A stretch of 64,000 nucleotides of DNA from a virus (Duplodnaviria; Heunggongvirae; Uroviricota; Caudoviricetes): the IMG/VR virus record IMGVR_UViG_3300034093_001947. One strand, 5' to 3'. The notes under the pieces are model-generated. The model had not been told where the DNA came from. It made no database searches and was given only the letters and a program-made list of their open reading frames with translations. Below are positions 61,274 to 63,948 of this stretch, piece by piece (positions within the stretch are counted from its first letter, which is position 1; every line of letters starts with the position of its first letter). Made by a program: the position numbers and the translations under genes.

Positions 61274-61360
61274 GGAGCGTGTTCCCTGTTGCCGGCTGTA
61301 ACCCGGTAGTCACATTAAGCAGGGTGGCGACAAGAGGTTCGATTCCTTCACGCTCCACCA
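61274..61360 (+). tRNA. tRNA-like element with a Tyr(GTA)-type anticodon stem-loop and a non-canonical D-region; may be degenerate
   Basis: Acceptor GGAGCGT pairs with ACGCTCC-A-CCA. T-arm AGAGG-TTCGATT-CCTTC. Stem-loop GCCGG-CTGTAAC-CCGGT. No standard D-arm could be fitted by hand. Confidence 0.3.
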
Positions 61361-61366
61361 ATAATT

Positions 61367-61441
61367 CCTCTTGTAGCTCAATGGCTAGAGCAATCGGCTG
61401 ATAACCGGTAGACATAAGTTCGATTCTTATCGAGAGGACCA
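61367..61441 (+). tRNA. tRNA-Ile (anticodon GAT)
   Basis: Acceptor CCTCTTG/CGAGAGG, D-arm GCTC-AATGGCTA-GAGC, anticodon arm ATCGG-CTGATAA-CCGGT, T-arm ATAAG-TTCGATT-CTTAT, CCA encoded. Confidence 0.7.
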
Positions 61442-61448
61442 AGTTTAT

Positions 61449-61523
61449 ACCGCAGTAGTCCTCTGGGAGGGCAACGGATTGTCTATCCGACTTAGGTGAG
61501 TTCGATCCTCACACACGGAGCCA
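61449..61523 (+). tRNA. chimeric or pseudo tRNA: Asp(GTC)-like 5' half fused to the 3' 33 nt of tRNA-Asn
   Basis: D-arm GTCC-TCTGGGA-GGGC and anticodon stem-loop CGGA-TTGTCTA-TCCG resemble the tRNA at 63635. The T-arm plus 3' acceptor (TAGGTGAGTTCGATCCTCACACACGGAGCCATT) is an exact repeat of 63054-63086. The 5' acceptor ACCGCAG cannot pair with ACACGGA. Confidence 0.35.
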
Positions 61524-61608
61524 TTATAGAAGCACATACAGATCCGCCCGAGTAGTAAGGGAGATAGCGACTAACCGTTGAAGGACTGTTTAAATGTGTT
61601 TCTATAAT

Positions 61609-61683
61609 GGGGGCAGCAGAGGGCTGCGGAGTTGCCTTGCAAGCATCTTGTCTAGAGGGGTTCGATACCCCCGGCCTCCACCA
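61609..61683 (+). tRNA. tRNA-Ala (anticodon TGC)
   Basis: Acceptor GGGGGCA/GGCCTCC with a G3·U70 wobble (the Ala identity element), anticodon arm GTTGC-CTTGCAA-GCATC, T-arm AGGGG-TTCGATA-CCCCC, CCA encoded; the D-region is short and atypical. Confidence 0.5.
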
Positions 61684-61690
61684 ATTTTAT

Positions 61691-61766
61691 CTCTCTAAAG
61701 CGTTATCAGGTTGCGTACACGGTTTGGGGCCGTGTGGTCCAGGTTCGAATCCTGGTAGGGAGACCA
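61691..61766 (+). tRNA. tRNA-Pro (anticodon TGG)
   Basis: Acceptor CTCTCTA/TAGGGAG, D-stem GCGT/GCGT, anticodon arm CACGG-TTTGGGG-CCGTG, T-arm CCAGG-TTCGAAT-CCTGG, CCA encoded. Confidence 0.7.
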
Positions 61767-61772
61767 ATTAAT

Positions 61773-61848
61773 GCACCTTTAGCTGATGTGGTCATAGCGG
61801 CGGTCTGAAGAACCGTTGAAGTTGGTTCGATTCCAACAGGGTGTACCA
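61773..61848 (+). tRNA. tRNA-Phe (anticodon GAA)
   Basis: Acceptor GCACCTT/AGGGTGT, D-arm GCTG-ATGTGGTCA-TAGC, anticodon arm GCGGT-CTGAAGA-ACCGT, T-arm GTTGG-TTCGATT-CCAAC, CCA encoded. Confidence 0.75.
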
Positions 61849-61853
61849 AATTT

Positions 61854-61928
61854 GCCCTTTTATCCTTAATGGTAGAGGTCCTGTTTTGTAATCAGGGTGT
61901 GTGGGTTCGATTCCTGCAAGGGGCACCA
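61854..61928 (+). tRNA. tRNA-Thr (anticodon TGT), tentative
   Basis: Acceptor GCCCTTT/AAGGGGC, D-stem CCTT/GAGG, anticodon arm CCTGT-TTTGTAA-TCAGG with one mismatch, T-arm GTGGG-TTCGATT-CCTGC, CCA encoded. Confidence 0.5.
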
Positions 61929-61938
61929 AGCAAATTAT

Positions 61939-62013
61939 ACTCCGGTCGTCTAGTGGCTAGGACGCCAGCCTTTCAAGTTGGAGAAGCGGGATCGAAACCC
62001 GTTCGGAGTACCA
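61939..62013 (+). tRNA. tRNA-Glu (anticodon TTC)
   Basis: Acceptor ACTCCGG/TCGGAGT, D-arm GTCT-AGTGGCTA-GGAC (Glu-like), anticodon arm CCAGC-CTTTCAA-GTTGG, T-arm GCGGG-ATCGAAA-CCCGT, CCA encoded. Confidence 0.65.
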
Positions 62014-62020
62014 AGTTTAT

Positions 62021-62107
62021 GGAGATGTAGGAAAATTGGTAACCCCAGTGGACTGTAAATCCGCCGCCCGAAAGGCACTACTGGTTCGACTCCAGTCGTC
62101 TCCACCA
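62021..62107 (+). tRNA. tRNA-Tyr (anticodon GTA), type II with a long variable arm
   Basis: Acceptor GGAGATG/CGTCTCC, anticodon arm GTGGA-CTGTAAA-TCCGC (the canonical Tyr loop), variable stem-loop GCCC-GAAA-GGC, T-arm ACTGG-TTCGACT-CCAGT, CCA encoded. Confidence 0.75.
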
Positions 62108-62112
62108 TTTTA

Positions 62113-62617: not shown

Positions 62618-62620
62618 TAT

Positions 62621-62695
62621 GGGGGTATAATTCAACGGCTAGAATAGCTGGCTTTTAACCAGTCTATCAGGGTTCGATTCCCTGTGCCCCTACCA
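62621..62695 (+). tRNA. tRNA-Lys (anticodon TTT)
   Basis: Acceptor GGGGGTA/TGCCCCT, D-arm ATTC-AACGGCTA-GAAT, anticodon arm GCTGG-CTTTTAA-CCAGT, T-arm CAGGG-TTCGATT-CCCTG, CCA encoded. Confidence 0.7.
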
Positions 62696-62775
62696 TATGC
62701 AAACACATTACTGCACAGCATTTTGACTTCCAGGTCTTTTTGTATGTTGTGGTCGTCTGTAGTGTGTTTACATAT

Positions 62776-62851
62776 GGTGATGTAGCATAGTGGCTAATGC
62801 AGTTCCTTCATACGGAAAAGATCGTCGGTTCGAGTCCGACCATCACTACCA
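62776..62851 (+). tRNA. tRNA-Met (anticodon CAT); elongator Met or lysidine-modified Ile2 cannot be distinguished
   Basis: Acceptor GGTGATG/CATCACT, D-arm GCAT-AGTGGCTA-ATGC, anticodon arm (G)TTCC-TTCATAC-GGAA(A), T-arm GTCGG-TTCGAGT-CCGAC, CCA encoded. Confidence 0.65.
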
Positions 62852-62857
62852 ATTTAT

Positions 62858-62932
62858 GGAGCTATCGTCTATCGGTTAGGACATCTGGTTTTCATCCAGG
62901 CAAGCGGGGTTCGATTCCCCGTAGCTCTTCCA
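62858..62932 (+). tRNA. tRNA with anticodon TTC (second Glu-like copy; the loop TTTTCAT resembles the Gln loop TTTTGAT)
   Basis: Acceptor GGAGCTA/TAGCTCT, D-arm GTCT-ATCGGTTA-GGAC, anticodon arm TCTGG-TTTTCAT-CCAGG, T-arm CGGGG-TTCGATT-CCCCG, CCA encoded. Confidence 0.45.
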
Positions 62933-62933
62933 A

Positions 62934-63001
62934 GTTTAGGATCGGTTCAGCAAACAAAAAGCTAACTTTTGGTGTCTAGCGACAAAAACGATCCTGTTAT
63001 T
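62934..63001 (+). ncRNA. conserved hairpin element following a tRNA (copy 1), a candidate small stable RNA or processing signal
   Basis: TTTAGGATCG-GTTCAGCAAAC…AACTTTTGGTG…AAAAA-CGATCCTGTTATTT. The stem GGATCG/CGATCC covaries with GGATGC/GCATCC in the copy at 63713. Confidence 0.35.
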
Positions 63002-63006
63002 TCTAT

Positions 63007-63085
63007 TCCGTGAAATCCAAGCATGGTGCAAGGACTTGACTGTTAATCAATGATTAGGTGAGTTCGATCCTCACACACGGAGCCA
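63007..63085 (+). tRNA. tRNA-Asn (anticodon GTT)
   Basis: Acceptor TCCGTGA/ACACGGA (6 of 7 pairs), anticodon stem-loop TTGA-CTGTTAA-TCAA (the canonical Asn loop CUGUUAA), T-arm GTGAG-TTCGATC-CTCAC, CCA encoded; the 3' end overlaps the stop of the minus-strand ORF. Confidence 0.55.
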
Positions 63086-63610
63086 TTCATTAATATCCCA
63101 ACGCTGATTAATCCTAAACAAGATTACAACCCGCGGAAGGATATTACAATTTTGAAAAGCATGTGGAACTTGTGTATTAACAATTGCAGGCTCATTTGTT
63201 TCCACTTTTCCAACAAACTCACAGTCACTGTGGTTGTATAGCATGTAGGTAACATTGCCTTGCCCTGTACCTTGTATTCTCGGCTCTGTAGTTGAAGAAT
63301 AAAAATTTAGAAAAGTATTATCAAATCCAAGGATAGGAATGTTTAGACTATAAACAAACCCTCCTGTATCTTTGTGAATAGGATATGTTCCTTTAAGACT
63401 TACGTTAATAACTGCATAATGAAGATATTGATATAGTCCGTATGTTTGAAGTTGTTCTTTGAGTTCTGGAATATCAGTAAACTCCGAAGCTTTAACATAT
63501 TGAAATAAAGGCTCATTAAGTTTTGTATGTTTGAGAACAACATCAACCATTTTATTTCTAATGGTGTCAATGTTTTCAAACTTGATTGATCTATAAAGTG
63601 CCGGATCCAT
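63071..63610 (-). CDS. hypothetical protein embedded in the tRNA cluster (possible cupin/2OG-Fe(II) oxygenase-like HxD…H)
   Basis: 179-aa ORF, the only coding gene in the 3.7-kb tRNA region; …PIHKDTGG… (H-x-D) and a later …VPHAF… with a downstream Arg. No nuclease motifs seen. Confidence 0.4.
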   Translation of the reverse strand: MDPALYRSIKFENIDTIRNKMVDVVLKHTKLNEPLFQYVKASEFTDIPELKEQLQTYGLYQYLHYAVINVSLKGTYPIHKDTGGFVYSLNIPILGFDNTFLNFYSSTTEPRIQGTGQGNVTYMLYNHSDCEFVGKVETNEPAIVNTQVPHAFQNCNILPRVVILFRINQRWDINEWLRV

Positions 63611-63634
63611 TCCGATATTTATAGCAAGTATTAT

Positions 63635-63710
63635 ACCGTCGTAGTAATCTGGGTATTACACCTCCCTGTCTAGGAGATCAAGGCGAGTTCGATTCTCGTC
63701 GGCGGTGCCA
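63635..63710 (+). tRNA. tRNA with anticodon GTC (Asp-like, second intact copy), tentative
   Basis: Acceptor ACCGTCG/CGGCGGT, D-arm GTAA-TCTGGGTA-TTAC, anticodon arm (C)CTCC-CTGTCTA-GGAG(A), T-arm GCGAG-TTCGATT-CTCGT, CCA encoded. Confidence 0.45.
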
Positions 63711-63712
63711 AT

Positions 63713-63790
63713 TTTAGGATGCGTTCAGCAAACTTTATACATTCAACTTTTAATTGAAAACGTAAAAAAGCATCCTGTTTTATTTTGTTG
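63713..63790 (+). ncRNA. conserved hairpin element following a tRNA (copy 2)
   Basis: TTTAGGATGC-GTTCAGCAAAC…AACTTTTAATTG…AAAAAA-GCATCCTGTTTTATTTT, with the same flanks as copy 1 and a compensatory stem change. Confidence 0.35.
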
Positions 63791-63858
63791 GTCTATGGTG
63801 TAATGGTAACACAACAGACTTTGACTCTGTCGTTCCAGGTTCGAGCCCTGGTAGGCCT
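63785..63858 (+). tRNA. tRNA-Gln (anticodon TTG)
   Basis: Acceptor TGGTCTA/TAGGCCT (position 1-72 unpaired, as is typical for Gln), D-arm GTGT-AATGGTA-ACAC, anticodon arm ACAGA-CTTTGAC-TCTGT, T-arm CCAGG-TTCGAGC-CCTGG, CCA encoded. Confidence 0.65.
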
Positions 63859-63871
63859 GCCAACAATTCAT

Positions 63872-63948
63872 ACCCGCGTAACTCAGTGGACTAGAGTACT
63901 ACGCTACGAACGTAGGAGTCGGAGGTTCGAATCCTTCCGTGGGTGCCA
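63872..63948 (+). tRNA. tRNA-Arg (anticodon ACG)
   Basis: Acceptor ACCCGCG/CGTGGGT, D-arm ACTC-AGTGGACTA-GAGT, anticodon arm CTACG-CTACGAA-CGTAG, T-arm GGAGG-TTCGAAT-CCTTC, CCA encoded. Confidence 0.75.

Follow-up and report, generated by a model that had tools for sequence, protein, structure and literature searches.

The tRNA gene clusters of the large lytic phages T4, T5, phiCbK and KVP40, and the tRNA arrays of mobile elements, hold many tRNA genes on the same strand with short spacers and an encoded CCA. They also have strong promoters, duplicated isoacceptors, interspersed small open reading frames (ORFs) and endonuclease genes, and occasional pseudo-tRNAs. The tRNA-Tyr of T5 replaces the host tRNA attacked under retron Eco7 defence (PMC11555353), and the tRNA-rich region of T5 counters tRNA-targeting defences (PMC11555353, PMC10264068). 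The same organization was found at positions 61274–63948 of the IMG/VR virus record IMGVR_UViG_3300034093_001947, a 64,000-nt stretch of DNA referred to here as the window: many same-strand tRNA genes with short spacers in a phage genome. We consider it very probable that this segment is the promoter-proximal part of a giant one-strand tRNA gene array of a phage, that the array contains conserved genes of non-canonical structure, and that one of its elements, E2, originated by a deletion.

ARAGORN called 14 tRNA genes in the whole window, all on the plus strand between 61367 and 63948, and a scan against every Rfam family recovered the same 14 with the tRNA model RF00005 at 40.6–68.4 bits. A gene was taken as canonical when it reached the RF00005 gathering score of 29 bits and was also called by ARAGORN; the 14 genes did so, and four further elements, designated E1, E2, E4 and E8, did not. 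These 18 elements agree with an earlier sequence-only reading of the region, which had counted about 18 genes and had listed the isotypes and positions of the called ones correctly. All features described below are on the plus strand unless stated. The called genes are tRNA-Ile (GAT) at 61367–61441, with the highest score (68.4 bits); six genes at 61691–62187 for Pro (TGG), Phe (GAA), Thr (TGT), Glu (TTC), Tyr (GTA) and Asp (GTC, anticodon loop TTGTCTA); Lys (CTT) and Lys (TTT) at 62542–62695; Met (CAT) and a second Glu (TTC) at 62776–62932; a second Asp (GTC, loop CTGTCTA) at 63635–63710; and Gln (TTG) and Arg (ACG) at 63789–63948, beyond which the array goes on past the window end. A CCA is encoded in all 17 intact elements, which bears out one half of a statement in the same reading; the trailer CCAA(G/T)TTT, which had been described as following most genes, could be read 3' of only roughly six to eight elements.

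Nine metagenome contigs were retrieved through a 179-aa ORF that lies antisense to the array (63071–63610, minus strand) and whose end overlaps the 3' end of E8. Related contigs and loci are given L numbers where they must be told apart. L002, which has the window genotype, carries 34 ARAGORN-called tRNAs for all 20 amino acids in an array that runs past the position of the window end. In L006, 42 tRNAs were called, and in L001 there were 48, with the array reaching the contig end, so that L001 has at least 48. The cluster in the window makes up only about the first third of the array.

The element E2 (61449–61523) is built from parts of two tRNA genes. Positions 61449–61496 match the 5' part of an intact tRNA-Asp, and from the pentamer TTAGG (61492–61496) onwards the sequence is an Asn-type 3' part. 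This Asn-type part belongs to an exact repeat, in which 61492–61525 and 63054–63087 are 100% identical; the exact copy had been noticed before, and its length is 34 nt and not 33. An exact 34-mer repeat within 3 kb is far beyond chance. The two acceptor strands of E2 (5' ACCGCAG and 3' ACACGGA) pair at only three of seven positions, and no acceptor stem forms in the minimum-energy fold, whose stability does not exceed that of shuffled sequences (z = -0.10). The tRNA model gave a local match of 17.0 bits, limited to model positions 8–63, which comprise the three inner arms. E2 therefore lacks the acceptor stem that is expected of a functional tRNA.

The intact arrangement was found in related loci, which were recovered when viral contigs were searched with a pattern for the Asn-type gene. 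L037 has the order tRNA-Glu, intact tRNA-Asp (ACCGCAG...CTGCGGTGCCA), 9 nt, the Asn-type gene E8, 7 nt, and the Ala-type gene E4, and its tRNA-Asp folds as a cloverleaf. When the window was aligned with L037, the two sequences were identical on both sides of a single 88-nt gap, and TTAGG was present at both gap ends in L037. L070 contains E8, the same 85-nt hairpin that separates E2 from E4 in the window (E3), and E4, and the flank after its E8 CCA (TTATAAAAGCACATAC) matches the downstream flank of E2. E2 precedes E3 and E4 with this same flank, and therefore seems to sit where an Asn-type gene used to sit. The proposal that 61449–61523 is a recombinant, non-functional tRNA is upheld by the failure of its acceptor to pair or fold and by the parental order in L037.

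These comparisons suggest that tRNA-Asp and its neighbour, the Asn-type gene upstream of E4, were fused when 88 nt between two TTAGG pentamers were deleted. Such a deletion would have taken out the 3' third of tRNA-Asp and the 5' two-thirds of the Asn-type gene together with the spacer between them. The product keeps three arms, lacks an acceptor stem, and would presumably be neither excised by RNase P nor charged. The 34-nt repeat is exact because a second, intact Asn-type copy is present at 63007. Both halves of E2 are still identical to intact genes, so the event was probably recent. On this evidence, E2 appears to be a non-functional hybrid produced by microhomology-mediated deletion.

A different origin would be ectopic recombination or gene conversion, with the Asn-type gene at 63007 as the donor that replaced the 3' part of a tRNA-Asp. 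The 100% identity of the 34 nt to a copy 1.5 kb downstream in the same genome would fit this, but E2 lies exactly at the Asn-type position of the relatives, directly upstream of E3 and E4, and has the same 3' flank, CCATTATA(G/A)AAGCACATAC, as the Asn-type gene of L070. Moreover, an Asp gene is directly followed by an Asn-type gene in L037, L042 and L075, and the single deletion between TTAGG repeats explains both junctions; we regard conversion as improbable. A direct repeat over a T arm and 3' acceptor is also the classic signature of attachment (att) sites, and the 34-nt copies might be duplications from the integrase-mediated insertion of a 1.5-kb tRNA cassette into the 3' end of a tRNA gene. 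Insertion of this kind calls for an intact upstream target and a recombinase in the segment. However, it is the downstream copy that is intact, and the upstream copy, expected to complete the target tRNA, is broken; neither an integrase nor any ORF of at least 100 aa was found between the copies (61524–63053), and the deletion accounts for every base. The att origin was rejected on these grounds and is very unlikely.

Mis-assembly was considered as well, since repeats abound in tRNA arrays and several contigs end within this one, so that reads could have been joined across the repeated T-arm sequence. L002, L003 and L005, which come from different assemblies, are 100% identical to the window over 59000–64000 (L005 only to 63762), and a fourth contig, L004, is identical from 61409 on; the sources of the identical sequence are ERZ27272053, JGI 3300033992, JGI 3300034108 and ERZ27272040. 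The arrangement including E2 is thus the same in independent assemblies, and it is therefore not a one-off assembly product. In addition, the shared repeat is only 34 nt long, against an assembly word size of 141 nt if the k141 in the ENA contig names is read in this way. An artefact is scarcely credible in our judgement. A search for the E2 junction gave no exact match in IMG/VR. Conversion, att duplication and mis-assembly all appear much less probable than the deletion.

E1 (61274–61360) had been described as a Tyr-like element beside the ordinary tRNA-Tyr. The Tyr type was retained in our analysis, but E1 is a conserved RNA of unusual architecture and not a degenerate copy. Its structure was derived by comparing the window with L006 and was evaluated on 32 distinct sequences, which were collected by similarity in the loci examined, with nothing forced. 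The fold starts with an 8-bp acceptor stem, a TT linker, a 5-bp helix (alignment columns 11–15/48–52) and one unpaired base. These are followed by a 6-bp anticodon stem with a constant G·U pair and a 7-nt loop, CUGUAAY (CUGUAAC in the window), with the anticodon GUA. A 3-bp helix (columns 36–38/58–60) crosses the 5-bp helix and forms a pseudoknot, and a 4-bp T stem and ACCA complete the element. E1 has no D hairpin; the 5-bp helix extends the anticodon stem and has its 3' strand inside the variable-arm loop.

In the alignment, 99.4% of the cells were paired, and 17 of the 26 pairs showed changes on both sides. The middle pair of the pseudoknot occurs as C-G, G-C, U-A, A-U and U-G without any mismatch. 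The covariation score including the pseudoknot was 0.437, compared with at most 0.077 when the 3' partners were slid by 1–3 columns, a control that was applied to E1, E4 and E8 alike. A covariance model of E1 with the pseudoknot left out gave 32 matches of at least 42 bits in 0.94 Mb, and ordinary tRNAs scored no more than 33 bits. Divergent members have other stems and even non-canonical T loops, yet keep CUGUAAA, and some have a 4-bp crossing helix (e.g., ACUC/GAGU); the CUGUAA loop is invariant while the stems vary. No Rfam family matched E1 above threshold, the best being tRNA-Sec at 30.7 bits against a cut-off of 47, and blastn found no match among deposited phage genomes. An intron-containing tRNA was rejected for E1, as no excision yields a cloverleaf. 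As a side observation, L006, L011 and L014 carry a second, uncalled Tyr (GTA) gene with a 5-bp D stem directly 3' of E1.

Compared with E. coli tRNA-Tyr, E1 keeps UU-CCC at the 5' position of the D stem and the GUC/GAC stem of the variable arm. The D loop and the 3' strand of the D stem are missing from E1, in which the partner strand is found in an enlarged variable loop. The closest described structures are the (8/4) tRNAs, namely allo-tRNAs and phage tRNA-Ser/His (PMC5389517). Like them, E1 has a 12-bp branch, made up of the 8 acceptor pairs of helix 1 (100% paired) and the 4 T-stem pairs of helix 5; the long variable region and the setting in a phage tRNA cluster are shared too. Unlike these tRNAs, which have a D hairpin with a long stem and a small loop, E1 has none, and its anticodon is GUA for Tyr and not one for Ser or His; the strand at the D position pairs instead with the variable-arm loop, forming the pseudoknot and extending the anticodon stem. 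D-armless mitochondrial tRNAs likewise lack a D hairpin and have an extended anticodon helix (PMC7609411). In contrast to them, E1 is viral and 87–90 nt long; its T arm is complete, it has a helix in the variable arm and encodes CCA, and its core is held by a covarying pseudoknot. The connectivity of E1 is found in neither group. The architecture is new and strongly supported by covariation, and it offers a natural test of how far the core of a tRNA can be rewired.

E8 (63007–63085) is a 79-nt tRNA-Asn (GTT) of a phage type, which scored 24.1 bits with the tRNA model, below the cut-off of 29. The E8 pattern search matched at least 119 viral contigs. The loci examined contained 50 distinct sequences, none of which was called by ARAGORN. 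The four variants of 78 nt were set aside; in an alignment of the 46 that are 79 nt long, with a cloverleaf specified by the analyst, 89% of the cells were paired and 10 of 21 pairs showed changes on both sides; the covariation score was 0.352 against at most 0.066 in the slid control. U1-A72, G73 and A8A9 are invariant, and positions 7:66 and 27:43 are unpaired throughout. The type is annotated as tRNA-Asn in some records of T4-like Acinetobacter phages. The 79-nt tRNA-Asn of one of these phages, vB_AbaM_Konradin, is 78% identical to E8 and agrees with it in length, U1-A72, G73, A8A9, the D loop and the unpaired 7:66 and 27:43, with no difference of substance. To judge from these sequences, E8 is an already annotated phage tRNA-Asn type that ARAGORN and the Rfam threshold miss.

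E4 (61609–61683) is a tRNA-Ala (TGC) with G3·U70, A73 and a reduced D arm, which consists of a 4-bp stem and a 4-nt loop without nucleotides 8–9; its anticodon stem has six pairs including a constant U·U. The window copy had no Rfam tRNA match, the best being tRNA-Sec at 20.1 bits, and blastn found no match in deposited phage records. The type was present in 45 viral contigs as 23 distinct sequences, eight of which were called as tRNA-Ala by ARAGORN. Changes on both sides were seen in 8 of 22 pairs, G3·U70 was invariant, and the covariation score was 0.282 compared with at most 0.059 in the slid control. The helices of E8 and E4 are thus maintained by compensatory changes, as in functional tRNAs, although both families have positions that are always unpaired. 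The two elements, like E1, appear to be conserved genes of families found in many viral contigs. The Ala (with G3·U70) and Asn isotypes that had been assigned by hand find support in the covariation of 23 and 46 distinct homologues, respectively, even though the window copies are not called.

Because E1, E4 and E8 fail the ARAGORN and Rfam thresholds, they might be taken for decaying pseudogenes. Against this, each family has 8–17 pairs with changes on both sides, and none of 500 shuffles reached the observed covariation score for E8, E4 or E1, which makes decay extremely improbable. ARAGORN called no transfer-messenger RNA (tmRNA), standard or permuted, and Rfam gave only 16.1 and 15.4–18.7 bits where 47 are required. 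The tRNA-like domain of a tmRNA was rejected as an identity for E1 or E4, given that the matches were below threshold, E1 has A3-U70 and E4 has an anticodon arm.

E1, E4 and E8, together with a structured spacer of the E0 type (described below), could instead be non-decoding structured RNAs that serve as processing punctuation of a polycistronic precursor or as decoys for host tRNA-binding proteins. Each of them deviates from the tRNA consensus, E0 is conserved though it has no anticodon arm or free CCA, and canonical Tyr, Ala and Asn genes are present elsewhere in the same array. However, E1, E4 and E8 keep a 7-nt loop, U33, a purine at 37, the cognate discriminator base and an encoded CCA, and identity features are present, with G3·U70 and A73 in E4 and U1-A72 and G73 in E8. 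The GUA loop of E1 does not vary amid changing stems, and the E8 type is annotated as tRNA-Asn in cultured phages. We consider a non-decoding role unlikely. If E1, E4 and E8 are counted as tRNAs, standard gene finders undercount phage tRNA sets, missing 3 of the 17 intact elements in the window.

All GTC anticodon loops in the window read YTGTCTA, and the observation that a pyrimidine at position 37 is atypical for tRNA-Asp proved to be real and specific to Asp across related loci. Every Asp (GTC) copy in the phage population has T37, and every other tRNA has A or G. In a survey of 164 related loci (1.47 Mb, 1883 distinct called tRNAs), T37 was found in 57 of 98 distinct Asp genes (52 with YTGTCTA and 5 with TTGTCTG) and a pyrimidine at 37 in about 18 of 1785 other tRNAs (~1%). 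The Asp genes of the window depart from the purine expected at this position and are otherwise canonical, with Rfam scores of 40.6 and 55.3 bits. Their closest isolate homologue, the tRNA-Asp of phiCbK, is 80% identical but has G37. A mis-assignment of the loop by ARAGORN was discarded, as 5-bp stems fix the 7-nt loop.

U37A38 tRNA-Asp is rare in cellular genomes. An anchored YTGTCTA pattern, which needs a canonical D loop and T loop so that the count is a lower bound, found 36 loci when one genome from each of 185,579 species was scanned. About half of these loci are in arrays of 6–23 tRNAs per 8 kb in Burkholderiales, Blastocatellia, Actinomycetota and others; the remainder are mostly single genes in Chamaesiphon and Planctomycetota. 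With so few loci, about half of them in tRNA arrays, U37 was rejected as a general host feature. Phage tRNAs with changes in the anticodon loop have been proposed to evade anticodon nucleases (PMC10264068); the change here is likewise specific to one isoacceptor, but concerns a pyrimidine at position 37 of tRNA-Asp. By analogy, U37 might reflect evasion of an Asp-directed factor, in the spirit of that proposal, and U37 and the altered D regions may both be adaptations to tRNA-targeting host factors. Going further, E1 could be a working tRNA-Tyr of an undescribed fold which, with the mini-D-arm tRNA-Ala and the U37 tRNA-Asp, forms a "shadow" set that resists the tRNA-cleaving defence nucleases of the host. 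We put this forward tentatively, as a possibility with the balance tilted against it. If true, the same selection would explain the recurrence of U37 Asp in the tRNA arrays of unrelated bacteria. In either case, an Asp-specific U37 in arrays of phage and cellular genomes bears on whether phage tRNAs serve codon supply or evasion of tRNA-targeting immunity.

Several points weigh against the account given so far. L037 is a relative rather than the direct ancestor, and the local deletion is deduced from synteny. For E4 and E8, the search patterns fixed the anticodon as well as parts of the 5' half, and only the free positions count as evidence; the conservation of the anticodon is thus independent evidence for E1 only. 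We found no literature linking U37 or these D-arm changes to any nuclease, and nothing relevant on U37 or pyrimidine-37 tRNA-Asp or on an Asp-specific anticodon nuclease.

Several spacers of the array are themselves structured. A T-arm-like GGGGTTCGAATCCCC at 61172–61186 had been noted as an isolated piece without an acceptor stem; the motif is there, but it is one hairpin of a conserved structured spacer, E0 (61117–61209), in which a long outer stem closes a cloverleaf-like four-way junction (z = -4.36). Among 13 variants of E0, 97.6% of the cells were paired and 11 of 33 pairs showed changes on both sides, including two in the T-like stem. In L075, an E0 element lies between the Asn-type and Ala-type genes. 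E3 (61521–61610; z = -6.85) forms a 17-bp stem that takes in the upstream CCA and the downstream GG; some related contigs carry it between their Asn-type and Ala-type genes and others lack it there (10 variants). E5 (62693–62778; z = -5.57) is a long hairpin that joins the CCA of Lys (TTT) to the GG of Met. E6 (62938–62996) is a hairpin of the form AGGAT-N4..CAGCAAA..N4'-ATCCTG with a T-rich tail, and E7 (63716–63777) is a second AGGAT..ATCCTG copy of the same family. This AGGAT..CAGCAAA..ATCCTG + TTTTATT family has two copies in the window and 73 distinct copies with 20 stem variants in related loci.

Upstream of the array and of two small ORFs, three tandem sigma-70-type promoter matches were found at 60359–60561, which agree with the consensus at 11, 11 and 12 of 12 positions. 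An internal consensus promoter (TTGACA-17-TATAAT) at 62399–62427 is also present before Lys (CTT) in L011. Within 60359–61005, just upstream of the array, the order is tandem promoters, 49-aa ORF, strong terminator-like hairpin (60800–60831) and 51-aa ORF; both ORFs are kept in L006 and L012. The leader between the small ORFs and the array (61006–61116), taken with 61211–61261, contains three hairpins with compensatory differences among the window, L006 and L012, as judged by eye. Inside the next leader hairpin (CACTCTCC...GGAGAGTG) is a stem-loop that resembles an anticodon arm and has a Gln anticodon in its loop (CTCTGAA, 61228–61234), and Gln-type loops were found at the equivalent place in L006, L012 and L014 (CTTTGAC, CTCTGAA and TTTTGAT). 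The 210-nt spacer after tRNA-Asp (62188–62398) has no called gene. In L006 its conservation is 97.6%, and an additional tRNA-Ala is inserted there at about 62392–62396. The only match of the spacer, to a permuted tmRNA at 18.7 bits, is at chance level.

The array adjoins an operon of sugar-modifying enzymes at 53890–60271 (minus strand), which encodes two epimerase/dehydratases, an FkbM-type methyltransferase, the N and C halves of a split transketolase, a GT34 glycosyltransferase, and a DegT aminotransferase that shows 39–41% identity to homologues from Synechococcus phages and marine viruses. The 179-aa antisense ORF (63071–63610) had no match in Pfam, PHROG or PDB, and a protein-based search found no loci related to it. 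It contains H-x-D and a distal H, which in our reading could fit a small cupin or 2-oxoglutarate (2OG)-oxygenase fold. According to PHROG matches, the window codes for rIIA and nicotinamide phosphoribosyltransferase (NAMPT). The best match of rIIA among 50,697 deposited phage records had only 29% identity, and a 684-aa protein of the window had its best isolate matches in Methylophilales phage Melnitz (51% identical) and Pelagibacter phage HTVC008M (36% identical). Megablast found no close DNA relative of the region among the same records. With these genes, distant protein kin and no close DNA match, the source is therefore best regarded as an uncultivated T4-like phage, a distant relative of the Melnitz and HTVC008M myophages.

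The array differs between strains. The match of L001 to the window begins only at 61768, five bases ahead of tRNA-Phe, and that of L006 only at 62185 and 62396. In L006, tRNA-Glu is joined straight to the spacer that follows tRNA-Asp in the window, without the Tyr and Asp genes between the two CCAAGTTT trailers. Several contigs break off inside the array, as expected where strains differ. The sequences suggest that the array is reshuffled between co-occurring strains by deletions and insertions. The rearrangement endpoints that were seen adjoin gene ends and trailers; those of the E2 deletion fall within genes, immediately 5' of the T stem.

Related contigs have a tRNA gene interrupted by a cassette that contains an endonuclease-type ORF and its own replacement tRNA of the same isotype. 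L014 (about 870–1500) has an HNH ORF (PF13392, 26.5 bits, cut-off 24.8) and a tRNA-Pro inside a tRNA-Pro. L011 (about 3140–2300, minus strand) has a 233-aa ORF with weak endonuclease hints and a tRNA-Glu inside a tRNA-Glu, both halves of which match the corresponding parts of 61939–62013 in the window. By their layout, these insertions look like homing cassettes aimed at tRNA genes. Unusual tRNAs were also seen past the window (L002 312–385, 1304–1395 and 3428–3513; L006 8524–8607; L011 3596–3680). Among them, a Met (CAT) of 74 nt has a short D arm and an Ile (TAT) of 92 nt a long variable arm, and the anticodon loop is 6 nt in a Leu-like gene of 86 nt to which ARAGORN gave the label '???'.

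We infer that the strong sigma-70-type promoters drive polycistronic transcripts, from which RNase P and 3' processing enzymes of the host would release the CCA-encoding tRNAs. The released tRNAs would then support phage translation when host tRNAs are limiting or attacked, and the array could in this way act in translation supply or counter-defence. E2 itself is an ordinary deletion scar, yet it provides a clean, datable case of microhomology reshaping a tRNA array. The wider interest lies around it, in the architecture of E1, the tRNA-Ala family with a reduced D arm, the Asp-specific U37 and the plasticity at strain level.

In comparison with the clusters of T4, T5, phiCbK and KVP40 and the tRNA arrays of mobile elements, this array is distinguished by 34 to at least 48 called genes for all 20 amino acids and by restructuring at the level of strains within the same metagenomes. 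It further differs from them in its three conserved families of non-canonical genes, its several families of structured spacers, and the U37 in every tRNA-Asp.

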